IMG/VR virus record: IMGVR_UViG_3300030380_006483
From: a virus
DNA: 64,000 nt
Strand: one strand, 5' to 3'
A program made the translations under genes and the position numbers. The notes beneath the pieces are model-generated. The model was given only the letters and a program-made list of their open reading frames with translations. It made no database searches and was not told where the DNA came from. Each line of letters begins with the position of its first letter. The first letter of the stretch is position 1. Below are positions 3,293-18,708 of this stretch, one piece after another.

Positions 3293-3480
3293 TGGCAGAA
3301 ATAATTAGACATATTAGTGGAATGTGTGGTGAACATTTTCACCCAAACATTTGGCACCTTTTATTAGGTGGGGTTGGAATAACAACTATTTTATCGTATA
3401 TTAGTTTATACTTAAAATGTAAATTTAAAGCGTTTGCCTATACGCTTAATAATACCTGGCAAAAATTTAAATTAAAATAG
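3292..3480 (+). CDS. small hypothetical membrane protein
   Basis: HISGMCGEHFHP N-terminus plus one hydrophobic segment; tiles between neighbours. Confidence 0.65.
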   Translation: MAEIIRHISGMCGEHFHPNIWHLLLGGVGITTILSYISLYLKCKFKAFAYTLNNTWQKFKLK

Positions 3481-3482
3481 AA

Positions 3483-4277
3483 ATGGCAAAAAATGTCGTA
3501 GTATCCTTATCTGGAGGGATGGATTCCTCAACTTTATTACTTAGATGTTTATCTGAGTATGATAACGTAACTGCTTTATCTTTTGATTATGGTCAAAAAC
3601 ATAGAGTAGAATTAGAAAGGGCTCAATCATTAATTAACTATGTTAATGAAAATGGGCAAAATGTAAATTACCAAGTTATTAAATTAGATGGTTTAGTTAA
3701 TTTATTAGAATCAAATTTAGTAGATGGGGGTGATGATGTACCTGAAGGACATTATGAAGAAGAAAATATGGTTGCAACTGTAGTACCTAATAGAAATAAA
3801 ATATTTGCTTCTATTACCCAAGCAGTAGCATTATCTATAGCAAATAAAACAGAAGAATCTTGTGATATTGCTTTAGGTATTCATGCTGGCGACCACGCAA
3901 TTTATCCTGATTGTAGACAAGAATTTAGAGATGCTGATGATGCAGCATTTAGAGTTGGTAATTGGAACTCAGAAACTGTGGGTTACTTTACACCGTATTT
4001 AGAAACAGATAAATTTGGAATACTACAAGATGGACAAATCCTTGTTAAGAACCTTGGAATTGATTTTAATGAAGTATATAGACGTACTAATACTTCTTAT
4101 AAACCTTTCCCTAGCGGTAATAGCGATTATAAATCAGCGAGTTCAGTGGAAAGGATTGAAGCATTCATTAAATTGGGTGTCAGTGACCCTGTACAATATG
4201 AGGACGAAACTGGGCCGGTAGATTATGAAGTTGCGAGAAAACATGTTGAAAAGTTATTAGCAGAATATTCGGAATAA
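3483..4277 (+). CDS. queC: 7-cyano-7-deazaguanine synthase
   Basis: SLSGGMDS PP-loop, FDYGQKH, VPNRN, YPDCR; C-terminal Zn cysteines absent. Confidence 0.92.
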   Translation: MAKNVVVSLSGGMDSSTLLLRCLSEYDNVTALSFDYGQKHRVELERAQSLINYVNENGQNVNYQVIKLDGLVNLLESNLVDGGDDVPEGHYEEENMVATVVPNRNKIFASITQAVALSIANKTEESCDIALGIHAGDHAIYPDCRQEFRDADDAAFRVGNWNSETVGYFTPYLETDKFGILQDGQILVKNLGIDFNEVYRRTNTSYKPFPSGNSDYKSASSVERIEAFIKLGVSDPVQYEDETGPVDYEVARKHVEKLLAEYSE

Positions 4278-4313
4278 TAATATTTATGGGTTATAAAATT
4301 AGAAAGTAAAAAA

Positions 4314-4457
4314 ATGCCAAAAATAAGTAAAGAAACAGGTAACCCACAAGTTAATACAGCTCGTGATAGTTTTAATAATAATGTACAAAAATTAAGTTTA
4401 TTAGGGAAAACTAAAAAGGTGCAATGGGGTGATATGAGAAGATATCGCACCATTTAA
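4314..4457 (+). CDS. small basic hypothetical protein (47 aa)
   Basis: Read manually: MPKISKETGNPQVNTARDSFNNNVQKLSLLGKTKKVQWGDMRRYRTI*; ATATTTAT motif at 4280-4287 upstream. Confidence 0.55.
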   Translation: MPKISKETGNPQVNTARDSFNNNVQKLSLLGKTKKVQWGDMRRYRTI

Positions 4458-4461
4458 AAAT

Positions 4462-4534
4462 TGCGGGGTGGAGCAGAAGGTAGCTCGCTGGGCTCATAAC
4501 CCAGAGGTCAGAGGTTCGAATCCTCTCCCCGCCA
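4462..4534 (+). tRNA. tRNA-Met(CAT), initiator (fMet) type
   Basis: Cloverleaf near-identical to bacterial tRNA-fMet; anticodon CAT 4495-4497; GGG/CCC anticodon stem; 1:72 mismatch; TTCGAAT T-loop; followed by CTA, so no encoded CCA. Confidence 0.95.
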
Positions 4535-4541
4535 CTATTTT

Positions 4542-5060
4542 ATGGAAACAATAAATTTATTTCCCCAAATTTTAAAATCATTTAAGTATTCTAATAATAC
4601 TAATTTTCTTTTAGAAGAAATAAATAAAATTAAAGCTTTATATCCAAATAAAGCTCCTTCTTTATTTAAAGATGCAATTTATACTTCTCCAAATTTTCTT
4701 TTTCAAAGTTATAAAAATTTTAAATTTTTAGAAAATGATATAAAATCATTAGTTTTAAAAAATTATAATAAAAATTGTAAAATTACTGATTCTTGGATTA
4801 ATATATATTATAAACATGGGTATAATGATTTCCATAACCATTTTAAAAATGATCTAGCAGGGGTATTATATTTAAAGGTTCCAAAATCTCATCCTGGGAT
4901 TAATTTTCATAATAAACATAACCCTATTCAAATATTTAATTATAAACCTCCCTCTAATACAATAATCTTCTTTGATGGTGATCAATATCACAGTTCTTTT
5001 CCTAACCCTGAAAATACTGAAAAAATAATTATAGCGTTTAATATATCTTTTAAAGATTAA
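4542..5060 (+). CDS. putative 2OG-Fe(II) oxygenase
   Basis: SWINIY..HGYNDFHNH, LAGVLYL, IIFFDG..HSS, KIIIAFN. Confidence 0.72.
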   Translation: METINLFPQILKSFKYSNNTNFLLEEINKIKALYPNKAPSLFKDAIYTSPNFLFQSYKNFKFLENDIKSLVLKNYNKNCKITDSWINIYYKHGYNDFHNHFKNDLAGVLYLKVPKSHPGINFHNKHNPIQIFNYKPPSNTIIFFDGDQYHSSFPNPENTEKIIIAFNISFKD

Positions 5061-5083
5061 TATATTTAAACAAAAAGTTTACA

Positions 5084-5091
5084 ATATTTAT
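5084..5091 (+). promoter_or_regulatory. ATATTTAT motif (candidate late promoter) upstream of tail fibre
   Basis: The same octamer occurs in about ten intergenic gaps of this window; AT-only, so chance hits are expected. Confidence 0.45.
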
Positions 5092-5112
5092 AGATATAAA
5101 TTTATATATTAG

Positions 5113-6948
5113 ATGGCTACATTAACCAATAGGACTATAAGATCGACTTACGATCAACTTTTACAACTAGAAGATAATTTAATTCAAGACGGTTTTGGAA
5201 CTCATTCTTTAAGTGGTTCCTATAATCTTACTGGAAGTCAATTTATATCTGGTAATCTTCATATTAATGGTACAGCTTCTATTGATTATTTAGTTTCTTC
5301 TTATGAATCATCATCTATTATTTTTAGTTCAGGTTCAACAAAATTCGGAGATGACACTTCAGATACCCATGAATTTACGGGAAGTGTTCTAATAAGTGGT
5401 TCCGCTTTTAGTACAAATTGGAGTGGATCCTTTACTGGTTCATTTATTGGTTTAGCAGATTCTTCATCTAATGCGACAAGAGCAGTTACTGCTTCACAAG
5501 CTGATAGAGCTACAACATCTTCCCTTGCTAATAAGGCCTCTAATCTACAAATAGTTGGAGAAGATTCAAGTGCAGCCACTCATTATGTTCTTTTTGGCCC
5601 TAACTCATCAGGAGAATCTGATGTTAATGCAGATGGTAATTTAAATTATGTACCCAATACTGAAACTTTAACAGTTACTAAAGTAATAGGTAATTTAGAA
5701 GGAACAGCATCAAATGCTGATACAGCATCTGTATTATTAGGTTCTGTAATTTCGGCTTCTCATTGTGAGACCGCTTCACTAGCAATTTCAACATCAGTAG
5801 TTAATGTTACTTCAACTTCATTTGCAAACAGTGGTGATGGTCCATTTACTGGTTCATTTTCATCCAGTTTACCTTCATTATTATCCGGTTCATTTACAGG
5901 TTCCTTTACTGGCTCATTAGTTGGTAATACATCAGTTAGTAACATACTACAAACTGGTACTACTCAAACAACGGGATCTAATACTATTTCTGGGTCATTA
6001 ACAATAACAGGAAGTTCAACTTTAGCAGTAAGAATAACTGGTAGTACAGCTTTAACAGGAAGTCTATTACAAAGTGGCAGTATTGTATCAACTGGAAGTT
6101 TATTACAAAAAGGTAGTACACAAATTTCAGGTTCTACTCTTTTATCAGGTTCATTACTTTTAACAGGTAGTAGTACCCTGGCATTAAGAGTTAGCGGTAG
6201 TACAGCTTTAACGGGTAGCTTACTACATAGTGGTAGTACAGCCCTAACGGGGAGTTTATTACAAAGTGGTAGTATTGCATTAACTGGAAGTTTATTACAG
6301 ATTGGTACTACACAAACTACTGGATCTAATATTATATCTGGATCATTATTAATAACAGGTAGTTCTGCAATAGGACTTAGAATGTCTGGAAGTACGGCAT
6401 TAACGGGTAGTGTTTTCCAAACAGGATCACTTAATGTAACTGGTAGTACTAATTTATCTGGATCTTTAGTAATAGTAGGAAATATTAATACGGGACAGGG
6501 TGTTACAGAAGTATATTTACAAAACCAAAATTTAAGAACAGCTGATTCAGTACAATTTAATGGACTAGGAGTTGGAACAGCACCATCAGGAGTAGCAGGA
6601 GCTATTTTAGCTACTAATGATGTTGTAGCATTTGCTTCTTCAGATGAAAGATTAAAGGAAAATCTAGAACCAATTGGAAGTGCTACAGAAAAAATAGGAC
6701 AATTAACTGGTTATACATTTGATTGGATTCCAATGGAAGGAATTCATGTACATTCAGGACATGATGTTGGAATTATTGCTCAAGAAGTAGAAAAGGTACT
6801 TCCTGAAGTTGTAGAAACAAGAAAAAATGGTTATAAAGCTGTTAAATATGAAAAACTTACAGCATTACTTATACAAGCCCTTAACGAACAACAAAAAGAA
6901 ATTGATAACCTTAAAAGTAAGGTTGGATCGTTAGAAAATCGTTTGTAA
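5113..6948 (+). CDS. tail fibre/virion structural protein with C-terminal intramolecular chaperone (peptidase S74-like)
   Basis: Ser/Gly/Thr-rich beta-repeat body; SSDERLKEN..FDW..HDVGIIAQEVEKVLPEVV..V.YEKLTALLIQAL plus terminal coiled coil. Confidence 0.88.
   Translation: MATLTNRTIRSTYDQLLQLEDNLIQDGFGTHSLSGSYNLTGSQFISGNLHINGTASIDYLVSSYESSSIIFSSGSTKFGDDTSDTHEFTGSVLISGSAFSTNWSGSFTGSFIGLADSSSNATRAVTASQADRATTSSLANKASNLQIVGEDSSAATHYVLFGPNSSGESDVNADGNLNYVPNTETLTVTKVIGNLEGTASNADTASVLLGSVISASHCETASLAISTSVVNVTSTSFANSGDGPFTGSFSSSLPSLLSGSFTGSFTGSLVGNTSVSNILQTGTTQTTGSNTISGSLTITGSSTLAVRITGSTALTGSLLQSGSIVSTGSLLQKGSTQISGSTLLSGSLLLTGSSTLALRVSGSTALTGSLLHSGSTALTGSLLQSGSIALTGSLLQIGTTQTTGSNIISGSLLITGSSAIGLRMSGSTALTGSVFQTGSLNVTGSTNLSGSLVIVGNINTGQGVTEVYLQNQNLRTADSVQFNGLGVGTAPSGVAGAILATNDVVAFASSDERLKENLEPIGSATEKIGQLTGYTFDWIPMEGIHVHSGHDVGIIAQEVEKVLPEVVETRKNGYKAVKYEKLTALLIQALNEQQKEIDNLKSKVGSLENRL
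5956..6480 (+). repeat. nested intragenic repeat: 6-aa GSxxxT units in three 52-64-aa super-repeats
   Basis: GTTQTTGSNxISGSL at 5956 and 6304 (348-nt offset); GSTALTGSL recurs four or more times; ggtagtacagctttaac repeated at DNA level. Confidence 0.85.
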
Positions 6949-6958
6949 ATTACCTTTA

Positions 6959-8068
6959 ATGAGTTATAATATTTTAGGAATTAACAGCAGTCATAATGGC
7001 TCAGTTTGTGTTTTATGTGATGGGGAAATTGATTTTTTTGTAGAAGAAGAAAGATTTTCTAGAAATAAACATGAAGATACACCTGTAGAAATTTTAAAAT
7101 ATGTTGCTTCTAAATATAAAATTGATGAAATTGCTATTGGTGGTTTAGAAATTCTTTTTGAAGCAAATGCTTCAAAAATTTATCAAAATTATTTAAAACT
7201 TTTATTCAAAAATACTCCACTTACTAATTTATTAGGATCCCATCATCTTTGCCATGCTTTTTCTAGCTTTAGCAGTTCAGGTTTTAATAAAGCTTTATGT
7301 GTAGTTATAGATGGGTCTGGAAGTTTATTATATAGAAAAGAGGATGAAAAATTAATAGGAGTAGAAACTGAAAGTATTTTTACTTTTAAATATCCTACAA
7401 ATATAAGCACTATATATAAATCTTATAAAACTTTTAATCCTAATGATGATAAAAGTACAGATAGTAAATTAATGAATTTTAATATTACTTTAGGAAAATT
7501 ATATGAAAGTATTACTACTAAATTATTTGGACATTGGGTGTATGCCGGTAAGACTATGGGTTTATCTTCTTATGGAAAATATGACAAAAATATTCCTTCA
7601 TTAATAATAAACCAAAGAGCTAATCCTAAATTTTTAGCAGGAAAAACTACAACTAATATTAAAATGGATCTTAATGATGTTGAAGGTACCATAAATACAA
7701 AGTATGATTATTTATTTAAAGAAGAATTAAAGTCTAATATATGTTATCATTTACAAAATGAGATACAAGAAGTTGTAGGAGATATAATAGAAAAATATGT
7801 AAAAAAAACAGGATTAAAAAAAGTTTGTGGCTCCGGAGGTTATTTTTTAAACTGTGTATCAAACTATTATTTAAAAAAAAGATTTCCTGATATAGATTTT
7901 TATTTTGACCCAATATCAAATGATGCAGGTATAGCATTAGGTGCTGCTAAATTATTGTGGCATATGAGAAAAAATGATACAACCATAAGACCTCAAAAAA
8001 CATTATATAATGGGCCAAAATATACTAATAAAGAAATTTATAAAAAAATTCAAGAATATTTGGATTAG
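6959..8068 (+). CDS. carbamoyltransferase N-terminal (Kae1-like) domain only, paralog 1
   Basis: EEERFSR, HHLCHA, VIDGSG, GKTMGLSSYG, GGYFLNC, NDAG; stops at the interdomain linker. Confidence 0.88.
   Translation: MSYNILGINSSHNGSVCVLCDGEIDFFVEEERFSRNKHEDTPVEILKYVASKYKIDEIAIGGLEILFEANASKIYQNYLKLLFKNTPLTNLLGSHHLCHAFSSFSSSGFNKALCVVIDGSGSLLYRKEDEKLIGVETESIFTFKYPTNISTIYKSYKTFNPNDDKSTDSKLMNFNITLGKLYESITTKLFGHWVYAGKTMGLSSYGKYDKNIPSLIINQRANPKFLAGKTTTNIKMDLNDVEGTINTKYDYLFKEELKSNICYHLQNEIQEVVGDIIEKYVKKTGLKKVCGSGGYFLNCVSNYYLKKRFPDIDFYFDPISNDAGIALGAAKLLWHMRKNDTTIRPQKTLYNGPKYTNKEIYKKIQEYLD
7835..7917 (+). repeat. 83-bp direct repeat shared with 10991-11073 (one mismatch)
   Basis: ggaggttattttttaaactgtgtatcaaac...tattttgacccaatatc is identical except gatttt/gatttc. 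Confidence 0.9.
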
Positions 8069-8079
8069 TTATATAGTTA

Positions 8080-8105
8080 TATTATATTGGGACTAATATT
8101 AGTCC
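8080..8105. promoter_or_regulatory. TATTATATT motif followed by perfect 16-bp palindrome GGACTAATATTAGTCC upstream of queE
   Basis: Palindrome at 8090-8105 read directly; TATTATATT also at 14560 and 27552 upstream of nucleotide/replication genes. Confidence 0.5.
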
Positions 8106-8139
8106 AAGTGACAGTAAAACCACTATAAAAAATTAACAT

Positions 8140-8913
8140 ATGCTTAAAAGAATAGACGATTATTCTAAACGTCTCCCAGTATTAGAATTATACACAGCAG
8201 TACAATCGGAGGGATCCAGACAAGGATATCCTACTATTGTAGTTAGAACAACAGGCTGTACACACAGATGTTATTTTGGAGAAGGTGGATGGTGTGATAG
8301 CTGGTATACATCAATACATCCTGAAAAAGGAAAATATAATTTTCAAGATATTATTGATATGTACGATAAACATCCCCATATAAAGGAGATGATGTTAACA
8401 GGAGGATCACCAACAATGCATCCTGCTTTAGTAAATGAATTAACACACCTAGCAAATGAAAGAAATATTTTCATTACCATCGAAACTGAGGGATCTCATT
8501 TCCTTCCCACTGACTTTCCTATTGGTCTCCTTAGTATTAGCCCTAAATTCAGTAATTCAGTTCCTACTCTCGGTGCTACAACTCCTCAAGGACATACTGT
8601 GGAGCAGAAGATGATTGATAGACATAACAAGTATAGATTAAATAAAGAAGCTATAAAAAAGTCTATTGAATATCATAATGATTACCATATTAAACCCGTA
8701 TTAGATAAAGATTTAACTATGGTAGGTGAAGTAGAAGAATTCATTAAAGAACTAGACATTCCAGATCATAAAATTTGGGCAATGCCAGCAGGTGATGATA
8801 GGGAATCATTATTTGAAAGTTATGGTCCTGTAATGAACTTTGTAAGGGATAGAGGTTGGAGATATACCGGTAGATCCCATATAATGGCCTTTGATACAGA
8901 AAGAGAGGTTTAA
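8140..8913 (+). CDS. queE: 7-carboxy-7-deazaguanine synthase (radical SAM)
   Basis: SEGSRQG.PTIVVRTTGCTHRC(x7)CDS, MLTGGSP, TIETEG, LSISPK. Confidence 0.9.
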   Translation: MLKRIDDYSKRLPVLELYTAVQSEGSRQGYPTIVVRTTGCTHRCYFGEGGWCDSWYTSIHPEKGKYNFQDIIDMYDKHPHIKEMMLTGGSPTMHPALVNELTHLANERNIFITIETEGSHFLPTDFPIGLLSISPKFSNSVPTLGATTPQGHTVEQKMIDRHNKYRLNKEAIKKSIEYHNDYHIKPVLDKDLTMVGEVEEFIKELDIPDHKIWAMPAGDDRESLFESYGPVMNFVRDRGWRYTGRSHIMAFDTEREV

Positions 8914-9048
8914 ATGGATAAGGAAGAAGCACTCCAAATTTTAGAAGAAATAAAAGAAAATGTAAATGTCTGCTGTGCCGTTACTATGGAACCAGAAGAT
9001 GTATTAGAATTAATAGATAAATTAGAAAGTTATATAAATGAACAATAG
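8914..9048 (+). CDS. small acidic hypothetical protein (44 aa)
   Basis: Read manually: MDKEEALQILEEIKENVNVCCAVTMEPEDVLELIDKLESYINEQ*; fills the queE-folE gap. Confidence 0.65.
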   Translation: MDKEEALQILEEIKENVNVCCAVTMEPEDVLELIDKLESYINEQ

Positions 9049-9730
9049 AAAACAACAACACACAGATTTAGAATCTGTACCAGTAGGTTACGCAAATGGT
9101 GTAGCACCTGGATTTCCTTTAACAGATAAGGAAAAACAAAAAATGATAGATCGTGCTGCAAAAGCATATGGTAAATTCTTAACTGAATTAAAATGTGATT
9201 GGGAAAATGATCCTAATTCGGCTGATACACCAAGACGTGTAGCTAAAGCCTATGTAAATGATTTATGGGAAGGTAGATATACTGCTATGAGTGAAGTAAC
9301 ATCTTTCCCAAGTGATGGTTATGATGGTATAGTAATAGAAAGAAATATACCAATTACATCAATGTGTTCTCACCACCACCAAACTATAAAAGGTTTAGTA
9401 CATATAGGTTATATCGCAGATGAAGATGGTAGAGTAGTTGGATTATCTAAATTAAATAGGATAGTAGAATTATTTGGTAGAAGAGGAGCAATACAAGAAC
9501 AATTAACATCAGCGATTCACAATGCTGTAAACACTATTTGTACGAATAATAAAGGTGTTATTGTTACAGTAGTAGCTACACATAATTGTGTTAGTTGTAG
9601 AGGAGTAAAACATCATGGAGCTTCAATGGTTACAACAAAAGCATCTGGTGTATTTATGCAAAATGAAAACTTAGCTAGAAAGGAGTTTTTTGATTCAATT
9701 AAAGTTAATAATGGAAATCATCCTGTATAA
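9038..9730 (+). CDS. folE: GTP cyclohydrolase I
   Basis: DTPRRVAK, SMCSHHH, VGLSKLNRIV, IQEQLT, HNCVSCRG. Confidence 0.95.
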   Translation: MNNRKQQHTDLESVPVGYANGVAPGFPLTDKEKQKMIDRAAKAYGKFLTELKCDWENDPNSADTPRRVAKAYVNDLWEGRYTAMSEVTSFPSDGYDGIVIERNIPITSMCSHHHQTIKGLVHIGYIADEDGRVVGLSKLNRIVELFGRRGAIQEQLTSAIHNAVNTICTNNKGVIVTVVATHNCVSCRGVKHHGASMVTTKASGVFMQNENLARKEFFDSIKVNNGNHPV

Positions 9731-10167
9731 TGGTAATAGAATTAAATGATAAAGCATTCCTATCATGGGATGACATAGAAAAACAAGTTGATAAACTTGT
9801 AGAACAAATAAATAAAATGGATAAAAAACCATTTTACATTTATGGTGTGCCTCGTGGAGGAGCCATTCCAGCTGTATGGTTATCTCATAAAACTGGTATA
9901 AAATATCAACAAATTAATTCATCCCAAATATCAAAATCAGCAGATTTATCTCATGTATTGATAGTAGATGATATTTGTGATTCAGGAGAAACAATACAAA
10001 AACTTAAAGAAGATTTCCCTAAGTGTTTAACTGCAACTTTATATCATAAAGAATCAGCAATTGATAAACCAGATATTTATGGAGAAATATCCACGTATAA
10101 TTGGTTATATTTTCCTTGGGAAAACCAACAATCCTCAGAAGTAAGAGATAACACATATGGGTTATAA
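9730..10167 (+). CDS. type I phosphoribosyltransferase (Gpt-like)
   Basis: GVPRGG, LIVDDICDSGET PRPP-binding loop, WLYFPWE. Confidence 0.88.
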   Translation: MVIELNDKAFLSWDDIEKQVDKLVEQINKMDKKPFYIYGVPRGGAIPAVWLSHKTGIKYQQINSSQISKSADLSHVLIVDDICDSGETIQKLKEDFPKCLTATLYHKESAIDKPDIYGEISTYNWLYFPWENQQSSEVRDNTYGL

Positions 10168-11221
10168 TATTCTAGGAGTTACTCCTGGTCATAATGGTTC
10201 TATAGCTTTAGTTTCAAACGGAAAATTAGTTTTTTATTTAGAAGAAGAAAGATTATCTAAGGTAAAAAAAGATGCTAATCCATTAAAGACACTTTATTTT
10301 TCATTACAAAAATATAAGATAGATGAAGTAGTATTATGTGGTGCCGGACGTCAATCACCAAACTTAGTCCGTAAAGGAGAGGATTTATATTATTCTATAT
10401 CTAGAAAATTTTATCCTAAAGTAAAATTCACTAGTTATGAAGATCATCATCATCTAACACATGCAGCTTCTTCATTTTATACTTCTGGTTTTCAAAAATC
10501 TTTAGGAGTAGTAATTGATGCCCAAGGATCCAATTTTAATTATAAAGGAGAAAAAATATTTGAAAATGATTCTTTATTTTATTGTGAATATCCTAATAAT
10601 ATTAATCCAATCCATAAAATATATCTTTCTGATTCTATTAGTCATTCAACTAAACAAGAAAAAATTACACCCTTTTTTTCAACAGCAAAGGTTTATGAAG
10701 CAGTAAGTGAATATTTAAATTTTCATGAAGAAGAGGGTAAAACTATGGGTTTATCTTCTTATGGTAAGTCTAATTCTTTTATTTTAGATTTTTTAAAGGA
10801 TGGAATAATAAACCCTAAATATTATACACATGAAAAAACTTATGGTTCTATATACCCAAAAATGAAGTTCCCTAAAAATATCCCTCCTAAAGATATAGCA
10901 TGGGAAATTCAAAATAAATCCCAACAAATAGTAGGTGATTATATAGAAAAAGGAATTAAAGAAACAGGATTAAAACAAGTTTGTTGCGCTGGAGGTTATT
11001 TTTTAAACTGTGTATCAAACTATTATTTAAAAAAAAGATTTCCTGATATAGATTTCTATTTTGACCCAATATCCCATGATGGTGGAACCTCAATTGGAGC
11101 AGCTTTATATAGATGGTACAACCACTCTCAGGATAAGAGTATAAGACCTAGAAAAAATTTGTATAATGGTTTTAAATATTCTAAAAAAGAATTAAAAAAA
11201 ATAATTAAAAAATATTTATAA
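10157..11221 (+). CDS. carbamoyltransferase N-terminal domain only, paralog 2
   Basis: GHNGS, EEERLSK, HHLTHA, VIDAQG, GKTMGLSSYG, HDGG; ends at the linker. Confidence 0.88.
   Translation: MGYNILGVTPGHNGSIALVSNGKLVFYLEEERLSKVKKDANPLKTLYFSLQKYKIDEVVLCGAGRQSPNLVRKGEDLYYSISRKFYPKVKFTSYEDHHHLTHAASSFYTSGFQKSLGVVIDAQGSNFNYKGEKIFENDSLFYCEYPNNINPIHKIYLSDSISHSTKQEKITPFFSTAKVYEAVSEYLNFHEEEGKTMGLSSYGKSNSFILDFLKDGIINPKYYTHEKTYGSIYPKMKFPKNIPPKDIAWEIQNKSQQIVGDYIEKGIKETGLKQVCCAGGYFLNCVSNYYLKKRFPDIDFYFDPISHDGGTSIGAALYRWYNHSQDKSIRPRKNLYNGFKYSKKELKKIIKKYL
10943..11073 (+). repeat. mosaic repeat: 10943-10986 identical to 14267-14310; 10991-11073 matches 7835-7917
   Basis: Direct nucleotide comparison of paralog 3' regions. 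Confidence 0.88.
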
Positions 11222-11223
11222 TT

Positions 11224-11610
11224 ATGAAAGACTTTAATTCAAAAGATAAATCTAAAGGGTTAGGAGATACAATAGCAAAAATTACTAATGCTACTGGTTT
11301 AGATAAAATAGCCGATGCTGTAGCTAAAGCAGCAGGCGCCGAAGATTGTGGTTGTAATAAAAGGAGAAAAACATTAAATGAACTTTTTCCTTACACTAAA
11401 AAAACAGAAATTAAAAAACCACATATTAATACTAAACCTTTAGATAAAATTACTGGAAAATATGAGGTTATTCAAAAAATTCATTGTACCTTACCAGAAT
11501 TAGGAAGGATAACTTTTAATAAAGGTTCTGTTTTATTAATAGATAAAAAACACCCTTTATATAAAGATATTTCTTTTTACTATAAAAAAAATATTATTAA
11601 AAAAATATAA
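11224..11610 (+). CDS. hypothetical phage protein
   Basis: SKGLGDTIAKIT..DCGCNKRR..LNELFPY motif typical of small phage proteins; function unknown. Confidence 0.7.
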   Translation: MKDFNSKDKSKGLGDTIAKITNATGLDKIADAVAKAAGAEDCGCNKRRKTLNELFPYTKKTEIKKPHINTKPLDKITGKYEVIQKIHCTLPELGRITFNKGSVLLIDKKHPLYKDISFYYKKNIIKKI

Positions 11611-13350
11611 ATGGCATATAATATTCTAGGAATTAATCCTGGCCATAATGGTTCTGCCGCCGTAATTTCAGATGGTAAGTTAGTTTATTATTTAGAAGAA
11701 GAAAGATTAACAAAAGAAAAAAGAGATGGAAATCCTTTTAAAACTATAATCGATATTTGTTCTAAGTTTTCTATTAACGAACTAATAATAGGGGGAACAA
11801 ACACCCCAGCTGAAAGGTCAACTTTATCTTATACTAAAGAAAATCCCTATTTTTCTCTTGTAAGAAAATTAAATTTAGGAATAGAAGACTATACAAATTT
11901 ATCCAGCAGCCACCATTTATTGCATGCTTTTAGTAGCTTACATAATTCCCCATTTCAATCTGCTGCTGTTATAGTAGTAGATGGATGTGGGTCTTGGCTA
12001 CACTATAATGATATTGCTCCTTTTTCTTCACTTGCAATAGAAGAAGGTAAAAATAATAATGTTCATGAAGCTGAAAGTATATATGAGATAAATACAAATA
12101 AATTTCCAATTGAAGAGGGGATAGAAAAACATTATGTTAATTATATTAGTAATAATATTAATGTTGAAACTAAATTTATTAATAGAAATCCTGGAATAGT
12201 TAAAGTATATGAAGGTATAACCGATTATTTAGGTTTTCATCCTTTAGATGCAGGAAAAGTAATGGGTTTATCTTCTTATGGTAAGTCAAATCCAAACATT
12301 CCTCCTTTATTTGTAAATCATAAAGGTAATTTAGATATATTTAAACCATCATACCCAGCAAAATGTGAATTATTAACTAACAACACCCCAGTACTACATG
12401 GTAATCAAAAAACCAAAGACTTTCATCATGATAAATCAAAACTTAATATGGTTTATGCTGATTTAGCTTATGAAGTACAAACCCAAACAGAAAAAGAAAT
12501 ACATCACTTAATTGAAAAAGCTATAAATTTAACAGGTAATAATAATATTTGTATTACTGGAGGGTATGGGTTAAATTGTGTAGCTAATTATAACATGAAA
12601 AAAAAATTCCCTAAGATAAACTTTTTTCATGATCCTGTATCTTTTGATGGGGGAATATCAATAGGTGCAGCATACTTAGGATGGTTAATAAAAAAAGAGA
12701 AAAACGATAAATCAAAATCATTTTCACTTTATTTAGGCCCTAAATATTCTTTAAAAAAATATAAAAAACAAATTAAAAATTATTCAAAAATGTTTAACAC
12801 TTATAAAGTAAATTATAAAGATGTAGCTAAAATAATTTCAGAAAGAAATATAGTTACAATATTCCAAGGCAGATCAGAGGCTGGTCCTCGTGCTTTAGGA
12901 AATAGGTCCATTTTATACGATCCAACAGACCCTAATGGTAAGGATTTTGTAAATAAAGTTAAAAAAAGAGAATGGTTTAGACCATTTGCTGGTACTGTTT
13001 TATTAGAAAAAGCTAATGAATATTTTGATATGGCTGGTTTAAAAGAATCTCCGTTTATGATGTATGCAATGGATGTTTGGCCTGATAAACAAGATAAAAT
13101 TCCTTGTATTACCCACGTAGATGGTACTTGTAGAATCCAAACATTAACCGAAGAACAAAATCCACATTATTATAAATTAATTCAAGAATTTGAAAAAATA
13201 ACAGGTGTACCTATTTTATTTAATACTTCATTTAATTTAGCAGGTGATCCACTTGTAGAGACAATTGAAGATGCATTAGAAACAATGCTTAAAAGTGAAA
13301 TGAAATATATGTATGTTCCTGAATTAGAAATGCTTTTAGAGAAAAAATAA
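11611..13350 (+). CDS. full-length carbamoyltransferase (NodU/CmcH/TobZ family)
   Basis: N-domain HHLLHA/VVDGCG/FDGG plus C-domain GRSEAGPRALGNRS, KKREWFRPFA, HVDGTCRIQT, NTSFN. Confidence 0.95.
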   Translation: MAYNILGINPGHNGSAAVISDGKLVYYLEEERLTKEKRDGNPFKTIIDICSKFSINELIIGGTNTPAERSTLSYTKENPYFSLVRKLNLGIEDYTNLSSSHHLLHAFSSLHNSPFQSAAVIVVDGCGSWLHYNDIAPFSSLAIEEGKNNNVHEAESIYEINTNKFPIEEGIEKHYVNYISNNINVETKFINRNPGIVKVYEGITDYLGFHPLDAGKVMGLSSYGKSNPNIPPLFVNHKGNLDIFKPSYPAKCELLTNNTPVLHGNQKTKDFHHDKSKLNMVYADLAYEVQTQTEKEIHHLIEKAINLTGNNNICITGGYGLNCVANYNMKKKFPKINFFHDPVSFDGGISIGAAYLGWLIKKEKNDKSKSFSLYLGPKYSLKKYKKQIKNYSKMFNTYKVNYKDVAKIISERNIVTIFQGRSEAGPRALGNRSILYDPTDPNGKDFVNKVKKREWFRPFAGTVLLEKANEYFDMAGLKESPFMMYAMDVWPDKQDKIPCITHVDGTCRIQTLTEEQNPHYYKLIQEFEKITGVPILFNTSFNLAGDPLVETIEDALETMLKSEMKYMYVPELEMLLEKK

Positions 13351-13354
13351 AATT

Positions 13355-14551
13355 ATGAAAATATTAGGATTTAATCCTTCTCATCATAGCTCTACTTGTA
13401 TAGTAAATAATGGTGAAATAGAATACTTCATCCAAGAAGAAAGAATAAATAAAATGAAATATGTTTCTTTCCCAATGGAATCTTTTATAGAACTCCTAAA
13501 AAACAGAACCCCAGATGTAGTATGTTTCGCTGGTGCTAGTATATCTTTTCCACTTTGTGGCCAATCAGATGACAACCTTTGGCATGTAATAACTGATATT
13601 TACTTAAAAGAAAATTATGAATTTTTTGATTTTTCTTTTAGTTATGATCAAAAGAATAAACCTAATGATGGAGGATTCCATCATATTGCACATGCTTCTA
13701 GTGCTTTTTACAATTCAGGCTTTAAAGAAGCTTTATGTTTAGTAGCAGATGGATTAGGATCTATTATTTTAAATAGTGGTACTGAAACTGAAACTCTTTT
13801 TAAATTTTCATATCCATCTTTTTTTGAAATACTACATAAAAAACTATATATGGACAACTTTCCTAAACATGTATCAGAATCTCTCCCAGATAATATGACA
13901 ATAACAACAAAAGTAAACCTAAGTAGAGTTTATGAAACTGTAACAATGTGGTTAGGGTTTAGTAGGAATGATGCTGGTAAAACTATGGGTTTATCTTCTT
14001 ATGGAAAATATAATAAAAATATTCCTAATTTTTTAGATAAAGAAGGAGATGGAGACCCCAATGTAATTATTGTTGACCGTGATAGAAAAGGAGAATATGA
14101 AATTGAAAAAGGATATCAGTGTACTTTTATAGATAAAGAAAAGAATCCTTATTTAAAAAACCAAGATGCAACAAAATGGCACCATAATAAATCAAATATA
14201 ACAGACTTAGAAAAAGACGTAGCTTGGAAAGTTCAAGATGAAACACAAAAAAGAATAGGTGATATAATAGAAAAAGGAATTAAAGAAACAGGATTAAAAC
14301 AAGTTTGTTGTAGTGGGGGTTATTTTTTAAATTGTGTTGCAAACTATTATCTTGTAAAAAGATTTCCTGATATAGATTTTTATTTTGACCCAATAGCTAA
14401 TGATGCTGGTACAGCTATGGGAATAGCTCAATTAGTTTATCATCACAAAACTAGAGATACTACTATAAGACCTTTAAAATCTTTATATTTAGGTCCAAAA
14501 TATCCAAAAGAAGAACTATTAAAAGAAATTAAAAAATATGTGGATAACTAA
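13355..14551 (+). CDS. carbamoyltransferase N-terminal domain only, paralog 4
   Basis: QEERINK, HHIAHA, VADGLG, AGKTMGLSSYG, NDAG; ends at the linker. Confidence 0.88.
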   Translation: MKILGFNPSHHSSTCIVNNGEIEYFIQEERINKMKYVSFPMESFIELLKNRTPDVVCFAGASISFPLCGQSDDNLWHVITDIYLKENYEFFDFSFSYDQKNKPNDGGFHHIAHASSAFYNSGFKEALCLVADGLGSIILNSGTETETLFKFSYPSFFEILHKKLYMDNFPKHVSESLPDNMTITTKVNLSRVYETVTMWLGFSRNDAGKTMGLSSYGKYNKNIPNFLDKEGDGDPNVIIVDRDRKGEYEIEKGYQCTFIDKEKNPYLKNQDATKWHHNKSNITDLEKDVAWKVQDETQKRIGDIIEKGIKETGLKQVCCSGGYFLNCVANYYLVKRFPDIDFYFDPIANDAGTAMGIAQLVYHHKTRDTTIRPLKSLYLGPKYPKEELLKEIKKYVDN

Positions 14552-14574
14552 TTTAAAAATATTATATTATCAAT

Positions 14575-15078
14575 ATGAAAAAATCAAACGTACCTTTTGT
14601 AAATGAAGTAGAAGATTTTAATAATTTAATGTCTAAACCAAATAATTATACACCTACTATTCCTGAAAAAAAAGAATGGCAATTTGTATATGACTTTGTT
14701 TTAGAAGAATTAGAAGAATATAAAGAAGCATGTGAAAAGGGAGACATTGTAGAAATATTAGATGCTTTATGTGATATAGCTTATGTATCTTTAGGAAATG
14801 GTACTATGCTTCATGGCCTAAAAGATAAAATATGGCCAGCTTATCAGGAAGTTCAGGCATCAAATATGTCAAAGGCATGTAAAACTGTAAACGAAGCTAT
14901 TGAAACTACTCTTAAAAGATCTGAGGAACAAGGGGAACCTTGTCATTGGGAACAAGTAGGCGATATGTATATTGTGTATAGAACACGTGATCGTAAAGTA
15001 ATGAAATCACTTACTTACTTTAGACCCGATCTAAAACAATTCTTTACCGATGAAGAAATTACTAACAGTACTAAGTAA
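14575..15078 (+). CDS. all-alpha NTP pyrophosphohydrolase (MazG-like, DR2231/PRA-PH-like)
   Basis: LEELEEY..DIVEILDALCDIAYV, EVQASNMSK, KVMKS..YFRPDL. Confidence 0.82.
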   Translation: MKKSNVPFVNEVEDFNNLMSKPNNYTPTIPEKKEWQFVYDFVLEELEEYKEACEKGDIVEILDALCDIAYVSLGNGTMLHGLKDKIWPAYQEVQASNMSKACKTVNEAIETTLKRSEEQGEPCHWEQVGDMYIVYRTRDRKVMKSLTYFRPDLKQFFTDEEITNSTK

Positions 15079-16360
15079 AGGAACCCTCCCCTTTATTATT
15101 GCATTCTCTGCCCTGTCAGTTAGTGCTTCAGCCGCTTTCTATTCAGTTAGCGGTTTAAGTAAACTATTTGCTGGGGCTTCATTTGAAGTAATTATTATGG
15201 CTGGTTCATTAGAAGTAGCTAAATTAGTTACTGCCTCATTATTATATCAATATTGGGACAAGATAAATAAAATTCTTAGAACCTATTTAATTATAGCAAC
15301 TATTATACTTGTATTAGTAACTAGTATGGGTATTTATGGTTTTTTAAGTGCTGCTTATCAGGAGACATACCAAAAATTATCTATTAATGAAAATAGAATA
15401 GAATTTTTAGACCAAAAAAGAGAATTTTACCAACAAGATGTAACTAGATATGATGATGAGTTAGCAAGAATATCTGGAAATATCTCAACTCTATCTAATG
15501 CTAGAGCAACCTCAATCCAAGTTAGAGATACTACTTCATCTACAGGGGTTAGAAATACTATTTCAACTGCCGAGCTAAGATTAGCTCAAAGTAGAATAGA
15601 AGTTGAAGAAAAAAATAGAAATGATGTTCAAGCTAGAAGAGAAATAGCAGCTGATAGTTTGCAAAAATATCAACTTGAAATATTAGACCTAGAAAATGAT
15701 ACCGAAATAACAGGTGAGTTAGGTCCATTACAATATCTATCAGGTTTAACTGGTACCCCAATGGATAAAATAATTAACTGGTTATTATTAGTAATTATTT
15801 TTGTATTTGACCCATTAGCTATATCTTTAGTAGTTGCTGCTAACTTTGCGTTTGCTCAGGCTTTTCCTAAAAAAGAAGAAGATTTAATTTTAGATTTACC
15901 TGATTTTGATCCTTTTCCTAGTGATTCGGAAGCAGAACTTTATCCCGAAGAAGAAGAAGAAAAAAAAGTAAATATAAATGATTGGGATATAGAAGAAGCA
16001 GAAAAAAGAATGGATATTATAGGTCAAAATGGTAATGAAGGATTACATTATGATGATACGGAAATAAAAGAATATATTGCAACTGCAGAAGATAAAATTA
16101 TGGCTGCTACTAAATCTATTATTGAAAAACAAAAAATAGAAGATAATAAATTAAAAGATAAATTGGATGCTGCTAATAAAGAAATAAATGAATTAGATAG
16201 ATCTAGTTTAAAAATAATTGATTCTATAAAACATATTAATGATTATTTAAAAATTCATGCACCTTATTATGATAATCAAGGAATAGCTCTTGATAATATA
16301 AAACTTGGCTTTGCCGAAGAGGATGATTATATTGACGATGATAATAGTAAAATATATTAA
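15050..16360 (+). CDS. membrane-anchored coiled-coil protein
   Basis: Three N-terminal hydrophobic segments, long charged helix, another TM (LLLVIIFVFDPLA), acidic tail. Confidence 0.7.
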   Translation: MKKLLTVLSKGTLPFIIAFSALSVSASAAFYSVSGLSKLFAGASFEVIIMAGSLEVAKLVTASLLYQYWDKINKILRTYLIIATIILVLVTSMGIYGFLSAAYQETYQKLSINENRIEFLDQKREFYQQDVTRYDDELARISGNISTLSNARATSIQVRDTTSSTGVRNTISTAELRLAQSRIEVEEKNRNDVQARREIAADSLQKYQLEILDLENDTEITGELGPLQYLSGLTGTPMDKIINWLLLVIIFVFDPLAISLVVAANFAFAQAFPKKEEDLILDLPDFDPFPSDSEAELYPEEEEEKKVNINDWDIEEAEKRMDIIGQNGNEGLHYDDTEIKEYIATAEDKIMAATKSIIEKQKIEDNKLKDKLDAANKEINELDRSSLKIIDSIKHINDYLKIHAPYYDNQGIALDNIKLGFAEEDDYIDDDNSKIY

Positions 16361-16956: not shown

Positions 16957-18708
16957 ATGTATAAAAAAATATACGAGCAAGGTAGAGGAGAAAATAAACA
17001 TTTAATACATCTTTGGACAGACGAGGGTTACGAAAAGATTGAATGGAACAACTATGCTTATAAAGAATGTTCGCCTAATGATGCAGAATTTAAAGGTTTG
17101 AAAGGTGAACCACTTCGTAAAACACACACTTGGGATAGAAAAACCCCTAAACTCCACTTTAGTGATATCTCAGCTCACCAAAAATTCCTTATAGAAAAAT
17201 ATGGTATTGACGATGAACCTTCTACTTCACATAAGGAGGTTTTTTTTGATATCGAGTGTGAGATGGGAGGAGCATTGACAGAAGAATATATTTCTAATGC
17301 ACCTAAGCCAATTACTTCTATTGCTTGGTATGATAAACAAGCAGATTGGTGGTCAATCGTTATTTTAGATAAAAAAGGTCAATTAAAACATACTAAAACT
17401 AAAAATAAAGAAATTATACCTTTACCACATGAGGCAGATCTATTAGATACATTTTTAAATAAAATGGAAGAAATTCAACCAGATATGTTAATTGGGTATA
17501 ATAGTGACTATTTTGATATTCCTTATTTATACTATAGAATGTGTAATGTGTTGGGAGAAACAGATGCAAAAAGATTATCCCCTATAGGAATAGTTAAATA
17601 CAAAAAGAATAATCAATATTGGTATAAAAAAGACCAATTTGTAGATATAGCAGGTGTTGAATCTCTTGATTATATGAGATTACATAAAAAATATAGTTGG
17701 GAGGATGAACCAAGTTGGAAGTTAGATTCTATTGGAGAAAAATATGCTGGTATAAATAAAATTGAATATGATGGTTCTTTAGATAGATTATTTGAAGAGG
17801 ATATACATAAATTTATTCAATATAACTTTGTTGATGTTGAAATATTAGTTGAATTAGATAAAAAATTACAATATATAGCTTTAACAAAAAATTTAGCCCA
17901 TAAAGGTAAAGTAAAATATAGTGAAGTGTATGCTTCATCTAAAATCCATGATGGTGCTATCTCAGCTTACCTATTATCTCAGGGAATAATACCCCCAGGA
18001 CGCCCTAAGGGGGAAAGTAAATTAAATTATGCTGGTGGTTACTTATTTTGCCCTAAAGCAGGGTTATACAAATATATGTTTGATGAAGATTTAACATCAC
18101 TATATCCTTCTATTATAATGACTTTAAATATAGGTAGAGAAACTATTATAGGAAAAATAATTACAGATACATTACCCGAAAAATTAGAAGATTTTGGTCC
18201 TTATGGTGGTAAATCTGATCGAAATAACTATCTAGGTTTAGGTGATTTAAAAGAAATGGATCCAGATGATGAAATTAGAGTTATGGATCCTAATGAAAAT
18301 ATTCAAAACACAACTGTAGGTAAAGTAATTGAAGTAATAGAAAAGAATAATTTTTCAATAGCGGCAAATGGAACCTTTTTTAGAACTGATAAACAATCAG
18401 TATTATCTACTATTTTAAATAAATGGTTTGATGAAAGGGTCATTTATAAAAATAGAATGAAGCACTGTTACCAAAAGGGTGATAATGAAGGTGGTGCTAA
18501 AAATCATTTACTACAATATACAATGAAAATTTTACTGAATTCTTTATATGGAGCTACTGCCTTACCATCATTTAGATATGGTTTACCAAAATCTATACTA
18601 AGTGAAGCAATTACATTATCAGGGTGGAGAATCATACAAGAATCTGCATTAGTTGCTAATACACATATGAATAAAGTTTTAAGGAATGAAATAAAGTTAG
18701 CATTATAA
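16957..18708 (+). CDS. family B DNA polymerase, N-terminal subunit (exonuclease + motifs A and B)
   Basis: FDIECE (ExoI), GYNSDYFD (ExoII), YNFVD (ExoIII), YAGGY, DLTSLYPSII, KILLNSLYG; motif C absent. Confidence 0.93.
   Translation: MYKKIYEQGRGENKHLIHLWTDEGYEKIEWNNYAYKECSPNDAEFKGLKGEPLRKTHTWDRKTPKLHFSDISAHQKFLIEKYGIDDEPSTSHKEVFFDIECEMGGALTEEYISNAPKPITSIAWYDKQADWWSIVILDKKGQLKHTKTKNKEIIPLPHEADLLDTFLNKMEEIQPDMLIGYNSDYFDIPYLYYRMCNVLGETDAKRLSPIGIVKYKKNNQYWYKKDQFVDIAGVESLDYMRLHKKYSWEDEPSWKLDSIGEKYAGINKIEYDGSLDRLFEEDIHKFIQYNFVDVEILVELDKKLQYIALTKNLAHKGKVKYSEVYASSKIHDGAISAYLLSQGIIPPGRPKGESKLNYAGGYLFCPKAGLYKYMFDEDLTSLYPSIIMTLNIGRETIIGKIITDTLPEKLEDFGPYGGKSDRNNYLGLGDLKEMDPDDEIRVMDPNENIQNTTVGKVIEVIEKNNFSIAANGTFFRTDKQSVLSTILNKWFDERVIYKNRMKHCYQKGDNEGGAKNHLLQYTMKILLNSLYGATALPSFRYGLPKSILSEAITLSGWRIIQESALVANTHMNKVLRNEIKLAL

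Follow-up and report, generated by a model that had tools for sequence, protein, structure and literature searches.

A modular carbamoyltransferase gene array with one activating domain in a marine T4-like phage

The question raised by the locus

To our knowledge, every solved or characterised carbamoyltransferase of the TobZ type is one polypeptide in which both domains are fused and the adenylate moves between them by way of an internal chamber. The stretch of DNA analysed here (64,000 nucleotides, called the window below) belongs to a marine T4-like phage and carries four genes of this family between positions 6959 and 14551, three of which encode the Kae1-like transferase half without the YrdC-like activating half. 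How could transferase domains encoded in this way (N-only proteins) obtain carbamoyl-AMP, and are they functional at all? The initial annotation had proposed that one activating domain feeds several acceptor domains in trans, and we examined the array, its genomic setting and its counterparts in related phages with respect to that proposal.

Four paralogs and one activating domain

Pfam analysis indicated that all four proteins match Carbam_trans_N, with E values of 1e-21 to 1e-24. The N-only paralogs, all on the plus strand, occupy three slots: paralog 1 in slot A (6959..8068, 369 aa; PF02543 E 1.6e-24) starts 10 nt 3' of a fibre gene, paralog 2 in slot B (10157..11221, 354 aa; PF02543 E 1.1e-22) shares 11 nt at its start with the end of a PRTase gene, and paralog 3 in slot C (13355..14551, 398 aa; PF02543 E 1.4e-21) ends 23 nt upstream of a MazG-like gene. 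The full-length enzyme (11611..13350, plus strand, 579 aa) matches both PF02543 and PF16861. It consists of a Kae1-like N domain (residues about 1-385) and a YrdC-like C domain (residues about 386-579, DNA 12766-13347), and it alone of the four matches Carbam_trans_C (PF16861; E 9.5e-62, 208 bits). Its sequence matches in the PDB are VtdB, GdmN, NovN and TobZ, at E 3e-55 to 4e-44.

In the alignment of the four paralogs, the ends of the three short proteins fall within 0-2 residues of one another, just past a conserved LYxGxKY...I..Y block, and the 11611 protein alone extends beyond this block, into the C domain. The short proteins thus stop in the linker, and C-domain coding sequence was not found downstream of the 6959, 10157 and 13355 genes. 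A tblastn search with the C domain detected one copy and no second one within the 64-kb window. The architecture described in the initial annotation, with a common stop position in three paralogs and a C domain in the 11611 protein only, is therefore confirmed.

The array lies within a 7-deazaguanine DNA-modification cluster encoded on the plus strand, recognised by Pfam and PHROGs, and by identity in the case of DpdA: QueD (2074-2538; Pfam PTPS), a DpdA-like DNA transglycosylase (2519-3292; E 1.6e-43 and 34% identity with the protein annotated as DpdA in Flavobacterium phage immuto), QueC (3483-4277; Pfam QueC), a QueE-like radical SAM protein (8140-8913) and GTP cyclohydrolase I, FolE (9038-9730); the four genes other than DpdA are those of the preQ0 pathway. 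Also on the plus strand are a fibre protein (5113..6948; S74 chaperone domain, PF13884 E 1.3e-16), a Gpt-like purine PRTase (9730-10167) and a MazG-like NTP pyrophosphohydrolase (14575..15078; Pfam PRA-PH, 74% identity with the NTP pyrophosphohydrolase of immuto), which is a conserved member of the cluster. The order of a fibre gene followed by an N-only gene is conserved in relatives. Between slots B and C lies a conserved 128-aa protein (11224..11610, plus strand) with no Pfam or NCBIfam match; it is present in relatives with and without carbamoyltransferases and belongs to the backbone of the cluster, outside the carbamoyltransferase set. The carbamoyltransferase genes themselves are accessory insertions and not core members of the DpdA/QueCDE/FolE cluster, since all of them are absent from many relatives.

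The N-only genes are intact

Residues H101/H102/H105, D124 and D346 (11611 numbering) are invariant across the four paralogs of the window. Alignment to the TobZ chains placed H12, H95, H99, D118 and D322 of the 6959 protein at TobZ H14, H114, H118, D137 and D338, of which we take H14 to be the catalytic base and the others the metal ligands, the numbering and roles being reportedly those given by Parthier in 2012. Among 24 diverged N-only proteins, H12, H95, H99 and D118 are invariant (24/24) and D322 is nearly so (90% or more), its equivalent being invariant in the four paralogs of the window. The AF2 model of the 6959 protein (pLDDT 87) has TobZ, GdmN, NovN and VtdB as its best PDB structure matches (E 1e-14 to 1e-16), and the entry of the TobZ H14N variant is present among the matches; for GdmN, a passage of PMC9633730 names H27 as the catalytic base. 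TsaD/Kae1 form the next tier, weaker than TobZ at E about 1e-10. By sequence, membership in TsaD/Kae1/Qri7 was not found, and Pfam and NCBIfam gave only Carbam_trans_N, HypF_C_2, NodU and HypF at the thresholds used.

Selection and distribution agree with these observations. The dN/dS of the N-only genes is 0.26-0.5, which indicates purifying selection, with 0.26 for the 6959 gene against a 95%-identical homolog. This 369-aa relative was found on 14 independent metagenome contigs, and N-only proteins of 345-399 aa make up 116 of the 120 best database matches in a large marine family with 1327 matches at E<=1e-10. The stops are therefore real and not assembly errors. In the tree, the lengths and C-terminal ends of the N-only proteins are kept over branches of 0.2-1.4 changes per site. 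We conclude that the three N-only genes are intact, as the initial annotation had suggested from the metal ligands.

Modules are mixed freely among related phages

The clusters of relatives contain the same two modules in several combinations. Two of them (L088 and L092) have two N-only genes and, in slot C, a stand-alone C-only gene of 186-187 aa; in another pair (L091/L174) a C-only gene precedes an N-MazG fusion, and L093 has a fused N+C gene alone. The fusion is in frame and involves the N-only gene at the slot C position. The 166-kb contig of L091 (CheckV 100% complete) contains no N or C domain beyond the C-only gene and the N-MazG fusion. Four N-only genes and one fused N+C gene were found on a 157,933-bp contig, and three and one on a 142,222-bp contig, the fused gene lying in both cases elsewhere than in the cluster; the link of a 92,864-bp contig to its N-only cluster is indirect, unlike these two. 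The ratios of N-only genes to C domains are 2:1, 3:1 and 4:1 on relatives' contigs of 116-158 kb.

At least one C domain was detected in 10 of 10 tested genomes or contigs that bear N-only genes, a count that includes the cultured cyanophages S-SSM7, Sf-FS3 and S-RIM44 and omits N-only-bearing contigs of 95,842 and 131,401 bp. In four lineages, two or three N-only genes lie in the cluster and no C domain was found within +/-10 kb.

The C domain of the window is 90-91% identical to the stand-alone C-only proteins of relatives and 87% identical to a fused one, and N-only orthologs are merely 50-60% identical to one another. This fits a conserved donor module combined with divergent acceptor modules. 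In the phylogenetic tree, the N-only proteins are placed in a clade of their own, separate from the fused forms, and are no recent offshoot of the neighbouring fused gene. The 10157 paralog clusters with its slot-B counterparts in L088, L086 and L083, its sister being the L088 copy (support 100/98).

A proposed shared donor of carbamoyl-AMP

We consider it probable that the array is a modular, split class III (TobZ/NodU/CmcH-type) carbamoyltransferase system, in which the N-only proteins are active, obtain carbamoyl-AMP in trans and each serve their own acceptor. In this scheme the YrdC-like domain of the full-length 11611 enzyme would convert carbamoyl phosphate and ATP to carbamoyl-AMP, which would be received by the three stand-alone Kae1-like proteins, acting as transferases. 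They could dock on the C domain through their conserved C-terminal tail and the neighbouring surface, or pick up released adenylate as TsaD does with the threonylcarbamoyl-AMP made by TsaC. Each N module would then carbamoylate a separate acceptor, and the modules would behave as fast-evolving accessory cassettes at three fixed slots of the cluster. The same imbalance in related phages suggests that one activating module supplies several enzymes that carbamoylate different targets. Of the original proposal, the architecture, the intactness and the pattern of one donor with several acceptors are thus supported by the data; the transfer in trans, the physical docking, the difference between acceptors and their nature (a nucleotide or a DNA base, or else a glycan on the fibre or the cell surface) are what we infer from them.

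Modelling of a complex between N-only paralog 1 and the 11611 C domain, a check suggested in the initial annotation, gave a score of 0.92, against 0.00 for the best of three controls; among solved complexes, 58 of 80 attain this mark, and among mismatched pairs 2 of 110 do so. Agreement between runs covered at least 97% of contacts, and the partner pLDDT was at least 90. The high score may reflect likeness to known structures, since fused enzymes of this family have been solved. The predicted interface includes the tail 346-368, which is retained in all N-only proteins as far as the stop codon, and the interface residues are far more conserved than the remainder (0.84 vs 0.55; Mann-Whitney p 8e-12). 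This conservation may reflect catalysis rather than docking, because the predicted interface overlaps the active-site chamber.

Two points speak against a simple form of the scheme. The only C domain of the window is covalently joined to an N domain that should already fill the docking surface, so that free N proteins would have to compete for it or use leaked carbamoyl-AMP; this adenylate is labile and in TobZ passes through an internal chamber. In addition, exactly one donor is not a general rule, since cyanophages with N-only genes carry two or three full-length enzymes.

Alternative explanations

The N-only proteins might be independent of the phage C domain and use another adenylate (threonylcarbamoyl-AMP from host TsaC/Sua5, the product of a host carbamoyltransferase or an acyl-adenylate from the neighbouring pathway), the 11611 enzyme being an unrelated, self-sufficient paralog. 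The four lineages lacking a nearby C domain, the separate N-only clade, the fusion of one N-only lineage to MazG and not to a C domain, and the second-tier match to TsaD/Kae1, whose donor comes from a separate protein, are consistent with this. We nevertheless regard it as unlikely: a C domain occurs somewhere in every N-only genome that could be checked, the stand-alone C-only gene has no obvious use unless there is a separate transferase, the N-only sequences belong to Carbam_trans_N and not to TsaD, and they retain the tail and surface predicted to touch the C domain.

That the four genes are independent paralogs in a hyperplastic region, with N-only copies acting as non-catalytic partner or regulatory subunits (as TsaB does for TsaD) or slowly decaying as duplicates of the fused gene, appears very unlikely given the (nearly) invariant catalytic histidine and metal ligands, which TsaB-type partners have lost, the conserved lengths and ends, and the position of the N-only clade in the tree. 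It would account for a dN/dS 5-10 times as high as in the neighbouring QueE and FolE genes, for the third N-only gene of L084, which is broken in two, and for the dispensability of the set implied by its absence from many relatives. Equally improbable is an ordinary split gene, in which each N-only gene has its own C-domain gene elsewhere in this genome. Pairs of one C-only and one N-only gene do exist (S-RIM44, L091/L174), and our search covered the 64-kb window, so that further C domains could lie in the rest of the genome; yet one C gene per N gene, the finding that the initial annotation had named as fatal to its proposal, was seen in no relative with several N-only genes, where the unequal ratios given above prevail.

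Comparison with known systems and possible acceptors

With TobZ, GdmN, NovN and VtdB the 11611 protein shares the same two Pfam domains, and the N-only proteins share the fold, the catalytic histidine and the Fe/Zn ligands; the expected common chemistry is the conversion of carbamoyl phosphate and ATP to carbamoyl-AMP, followed by transfer to a nucleophile. The phage system differs in that three of its four transferase domains are separate proteins and in that relatives also encode a separate activating domain of 186 aa. In this phage and its marine relatives, the two enzyme halves are encoded separately and not in equal number, with 1-4 transferases per activating domain. If one activator truly serves several transferases, this would be a natural plug-in system that diversifies carbamoylation by combining a conserved donor with rapidly swapped acceptors.

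A precedent for supply in trans is t6A synthesis, in which the YrdC-fold TsaC/Sua5 makes threonylcarbamoyl-AMP and a separate Kae1-fold metalloenzyme (TsaD/Kae1/Qri7) transfers it to a nucleobase. There, one donor serves one acceptor enzyme and the sole substrate is tRNA A37, whereas the proteins described here fall in the carbamoyltransferase branch by sequence. Relatives encode a stand-alone YrdC-like C-only protein, which might be such a separate donor, and docking is predicted by the model. If the proposed transfer is true, it would add to tRNA t6A synthesis a second case in which an adenylate passes between YrdC-fold and Kae1-fold proteins.

As the initial annotation correctly stated, a phage carbamoyltransferase acts on 5-hydroxymethylcytosine, modifying ssDNA, 5hmdCTP and RNA with carbamoyl phosphate and ATP; that enzyme is, however, a fused protein of 63 kDa found together with a dCMP hydroxymethylase (Yang et al. 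2021, eLife, PMC8670742). Nucleotides and DNA bases are realistic acceptors, since this member of the same family modifies nucleic acid. The neighbours here are instead 7-deazaguanine genes, a hydroxymethylase was not seen, and in the relative L220 the ThyA adjoining an N-only gene is, by its score, a genuine thymidylate synthase. It is conceivable, though doubtful, that the N-only proteins modify nucleotides or DNA bases and share one carbamoyl-AMP synthase as their donor. Every paralog would then have its own base or nucleotide as target, which could be a derivative of 7-deazaguanine, and would act on (d)NMPs or (d)NTPs in conjunction with the MazG-like pyrophosphohydrolase, the fusion partner in one lineage. 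Abundant marine phages would in that case gain new, swappable carbamoylated DNA bases for restriction evasion. The alleles of the N-only genes are replaced far more quickly than those of their neighbours, and this turnover and the setting of the N-only genes (DNA-modification cluster, fibre gene, pyrophosphatase fusion) are typical of phage-host arms-race functions such as DNA hypermodification and virion or cell-surface glycan decoration. Identifying the acceptors might uncover modified bases or glycans that are new, and provide enzymes useful for labelling nucleic acids or sugars.

Similar genes occur in cultured T4-like cyanophages, where S-SSM7 (371 aa) and Sf-FS3 (391 aa) have N-only genes beside full-length ones, and S-RIM44 has a split pair of C-only and N-only genes. 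They are annotated merely as carbamoyltransferase/Nol ('Nol' in S-SSM7; PHROGs phrog_1601 and phrog_20469), and a cyanophage genome comparison lists carbamoyltransferases as sporadic genes and does not discuss the split. The cyanophage genes differ in lying in heptose/LPS-type sugar clusters, in forming a separate clade and in having no single donor. A YrdC-like domain that makes carbamoyl-AMP and a Kae1-like domain that transfers it are also described for HypF-HypE in a passage of PMC9633730. HypF was a weak structural and HMM match, and it differs in being a single fused polypeptide that also has acylphosphatase and zinc-finger domains, and in having a protein thiol as its acceptor.

Domain architecture of the carbamoyltransferase paralogs

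All four plus-strand paralogs at 6959–14551 match Pfam Carbam_trans_N, the Kae1-like domain: N-only paralog 1 (6959–8068, 369 aa), N-only paralog 2 (10157–11221, 354 aa), the fused N+C enzyme (11611–13350, 579 aa) and N-only paralog 3 (13355–14551, 398 aa). The 579-aa protein alone also matches Carbam_trans_C (208 bits), the YrdC-like domain. The short paralogs are 34–40% identical to it, and in the alignment they end at most two residues apart, directly past a conserved LYxGxKY...I..Y block beyond which the 579-aa protein extends into its YrdC-like domain. Pfam and alignment thus agree on what the initial annotation had described, namely four paralogs of which three stop at a common linker position and only 11611 carries a C domain.

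Alignment to the TobZ chains showed that H12, H95, H99, D118 and D322 of the 6959 protein (N-only paralog 1) correspond to TobZ H14, H114, H118, D137 and D338, which we take to be the catalytic base (H14) and the metal ligands (the other four; Parthier 2012). In GdmN, another fused carbamoyltransferase, the base equivalent to TobZ H14 is H27 (PMC9633730). The AlphaFold model of the 6959 protein (pLDDT 87) best matched the Kae1-like domains of TobZ, GdmN, NovN and VtdB, followed by TsaD/Kae1.

At the DNA level, the N-only paralogs have blocks of 56–300 nt in common (7542–7597 with 13971–14026; 7754–8053 with 10910–11209 and 14234–14533) at 70–93% identity, against 61–73% to the fused gene. These blocks span the GKTMGLSSYG motif and the domain's conserved C-terminal stretch. 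Constraint on this stretch can explain blocks of 61–93% identity, and no clear sign of gene conversion among the paralogs was seen.

Insertion slots in a 7-deazaguanine cluster

The phage is T4-like, marine and low in GC (~28%), and its four carbamoyltransferase genes are interspersed among those of a 7-deazaguanine DNA-modification cluster. QueD (starting at 2074), a DpdA-like transglycosylase (2519), QueC (3483) and a fibre gene (5113) are followed by N-only paralog 1 (slot A), QueE (8140), FolE (9038), a Gpt-like PRTase (9730), N-only paralog 2 (slot B), a 128-aa protein with function unassigned (11224), the fused enzyme and then N-only paralog 3 (slot C), a MazG-like pyrophosphohydrolase (14575–15078), a 436-aa protein (15050–16360) and a split PolB (16957). 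Among the 87 related metagenome and IMG/VR loci that we classified, 48 had at least three Que-cluster genes beside the query gene, and most of these 48 were without any carbamoyltransferase gene. The carbamoyltransferase genes are therefore accessory insertions, placed at three fixed slots, one past the fibre gene, another past the PRTase and the third between the 128-aa gene and MazG. They are dispensable for the deazaguanine pathway itself, since many relatives have the full cluster without them.

The DpdA/QueD/QueC/QueE/FolE cluster was always accompanied by the Gpt-like purine PRTase and the MazG-like pyrophosphohydrolase (window 2074–15078, loci L090–L169), and the 128-aa protein occurred in one of the two gene orders of related contigs showing the cluster. 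QueF was not found in the window. A possible role of the PRTase is salvage of the guanine released by DpdA; alternatively, it may be a sign of a nucleotide-level route. The 436-aa protein was considered as a modification enzyme and rejected: it has no family match, is membrane/coiled-coil-like (its N-terminal part is hydrophobic, its C-terminal part charged, rich in Glu/Lys and coiled-coil-like) and lies outside the Que cluster in the Flavobacterium phage immuto, whose homologue aligns over residues 4–258 at 67% identity. It is conserved very widely in the phage group, in more than 560 IMG/VR stretches.

The module set varies among the related loci. Slot C holds one N-only gene in L085/L086 and L223/L224, a broken N-only gene in L084 and nothing in L083. 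L093 has only a fused enzyme, L088 and L092 combine a C-only gene (186–187 aa) with two N-only genes at other places of the cluster, and L091 (166 kb, CheckV 100% complete) and L174–L177 have a C-only gene followed by an in-frame fusion of an N-only domain with MazG (546 aa). This fusion lies directly 3' of the C-only gene (L174:6570–8210, L091:6992–8683, also L175–L177) in a widespread related lineage; 24 contigs were read for the C-only gene of L174–L177, and the fusion was present at four of the four places shown. Its counterparts in the window (13355–14551 and 14575–15078) are 23 nt apart.

The stand-alone Kae1-like family

With the 6959 protein as query, 1327 database matches were obtained at E<=1e-10; the best 120 of these comprised 116 proteins with Carbam_trans_N only (345–399 aa, full coverage) and four fused enzymes. 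A 369-aa protein 95% identical to the query occurs on 14 contigs from independent samples, so the stops are genuine and not assembly errors. Stand-alone C-only proteins are also common (PHROGs family phrog_20469). Nearly all carbamoyltransferases in IMG/VR are full-length, and single N-only proteins used as queries there found no close relatives, returning either nothing or distant fused forms only; a megablast of the region gave zero matches to cultured phages.

In the N-domain tree, the N-only proteins of the window's phage group all fall into one clade (support 85/93) apart from the fused enzymes, with sub-clades that mostly track the insertion slots, and the fused gene of the window has that of L093 as its sister. 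Between L083 and L088, QueE and FolE are 98–99% identical in protein (dS 0.16–0.29), whereas identity falls to 67% (dS 0.90) for the N-only gene directly upstream. Likewise, the slot A and B alleles of L083, L086 and L088 show dS of ~0.9 (57–67% aa identity) beside QueE and FolE at dS 0.16–0.34 (97–99% identity). This far greater divergence than in the adjacent genes suggests that N-only alleles were replaced in a cassette-like manner, by recombination.

The component families are already known, and N-only and C-only genes are already present, unremarked, in cultured cyanophage genomes; a cyanophage genome comparison listed the carbamoyltransferase just as a sporadic gene, and no publication on the split architecture turned up in our literature searches. 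The new elements recognised here are a large stand-alone Kae1-like family that pairs in unequal numbers with one YrdC-like module, fused and split states that interconvert freely between close relatives, the fusion to MazG, and insertion slots at fixed places within a DNA-modification cluster.

Predicted docking of the 6959 protein and the C domain

The initial annotation had proposed complex modelling of each N-only protein with the 11611 C domain. In a controlled prediction with one alignment per chain, the best of three controls scored 0.00 and the 6959 protein with this domain 0.92, a mark attained by 58 of 80 solved complexes but by just 2 of 110 mismatched pairs. Contacts agreed to at least 97% between runs, and the pLDDT of the partners did not fall below 90. 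Docking is thus predicted for this pair, and the pass may reflect mere likeness to the family and not binding by these copies, since fused enzymes of the family have solved structures. The predicted interface includes residues 296–324 and the entire C-terminal tail 346–368, the segment that all N-only proteins keep up to the shared stop. Across 24 N-only proteins, conservation was 0.84 in the predicted interface vs 0.55 in the rest (p 8e-12), part of which catalysis could account for, because the interface borders the active-site chamber. Group-specific residues between N-only and fused proteins were found at three positions, two of them in the interface, too few for an argument.

Supply of the activated carbamoyl group

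The array is probably a split multi-acceptor carbamoyltransferase, in which the YrdC-like module would make carbamoyl-AMP, the free Kae1-like paralogs would receive it in trans, and these would move the carbamoyl group onto different acceptors. The window C domain is 91% identical to the C-only protein of L092, 90% to that of L088 and 87% to the fused C domain of L093, whereas N-only orthologs in the same genomes are just 50–60% identical; a conserved C and divergent N would be the pattern expected for a generic activating module with interchangeable, specificity-bearing transferase modules. In genomes where the C-only gene and the N genes are separate, non-covalent cooperation appears almost unavoidable. 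Trans supply in the window itself faces a difficulty: its one C domain is part of the same protein as an N domain, and the free paralogs would need either to compete with that N domain or to draw on adenylate that has been released. The second route would have an analogue in the tRNA t6A system, where TsaD uses threonylcarbamoyl-AMP made by TsaC.

Alongside this difficulty stands the alternative that an independent donor serves the N-only proteins, which we consider unlikely. At least one C domain was present in ten of ten N-only-bearing genomes or contigs checked, a count that leaves out contigs of 95,842 and 131,401 bp. The complete cultured cyanophages S-SSM7, Sf-FS3 and S-RIM44 each carry one N-only gene, together with three fused enzymes, two fused enzymes and one C-only gene, respectively. 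Candidates for N-only genomes devoid of any C domain were ruled out for the 157,933-bp contig of L086 and the 142,222-bp contig of L083, where a fused enzyme lies ~50–60 kb away: the former encodes a fused 554-aa enzyme, then a fourth N-only gene, near 125 kb, and the latter a fused 559-aa enzyme, then a third N-only gene. A 92,864-bp contig has a candidate fused enzyme too. One-to-one C genes hidden elsewhere in the genome are an explanation we regard as improbable; tblastn with the 11611 C domain found no second copy in the 64-kb window, and the C-domain count was always one in the genomes and contigs checked of the window's own phage group. We give as little credence to the N-only proteins being non-catalytic or decaying copies. 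The third N-only gene of L084 (14675–15629) is in two pieces of 232 and 87 aa and is whole (373 aa) in L085 and L086, which have identical flanks; the broken gene illustrates how an accessory paralog is still being lost. The dN/dS ratio is 0.26–0.5 for N-only orthologs vs 0.02–0.09 for the flanking QueE and FolE of close relatives. The N-only genes are under purifying selection, much weaker than that on their neighbours.

Candidate acceptors

Pointers to nucleotide or DNA acceptors are the insertion in the DpdA/Que cluster and the recurrent N-MazG fusion in one lineage. A phage enzyme of the same family carbamoylates 5hmC in ssDNA, 5hmdCTP and RNA (PMC8670742), which points the same way. An N-only gene (L220) beside a thymidylate-synthase homolog was considered as a mark of a hydroxymethyl-pyrimidine pathway and rejected, the neighbour being a true ThyA (344 bits vs the 325-bit NCBIfam thymidylate synthase equivalog cut-off; best alignment to true ThyA structures).

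Glycan acceptors are pointed to by the conserved order of fibre gene and N-only gene, by pairs of fused enzyme plus N-only among glycosyltransferase and cupin genes in relatives, by such pairs within heptose clusters in cyanophages, and by a 20-kb sugar-pathway island in the window. This island (31462–52110) contains several glycosyltransferases, a GDP-mannose dehydratase, epimerases, a DegT-type aminotransferase, a ThDP enzyme followed by PanB, and a HAD-nucleotidyltransferase fusion. Genes for 2OG-Fe(II) oxygenases are dispersed over the island and the rest of the window (615, 4542, 16363, 23231, 29368, 36169 and 50636).

Other features and host

The family B DNA polymerase is encoded in two genes (16957–18708 and 20876–21799), between which lie a tryptophan-halogenase-like gene (18737–20266) and a cupin/mannose-6-phosphate-isomerase-like gene (20263–20610); PolB is split in relatives too, with the gap filled by other small genes. 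The phage carries a TonB-dependent receptor gene (53966–56482, 838 aa, Plug and beta-barrel), which in L084 and L086 adjoins ribonucleotide reductase, and several window proteins are 67–74% identical to those of immuto. The receptor and these identities hint at a Bacteroidota host.
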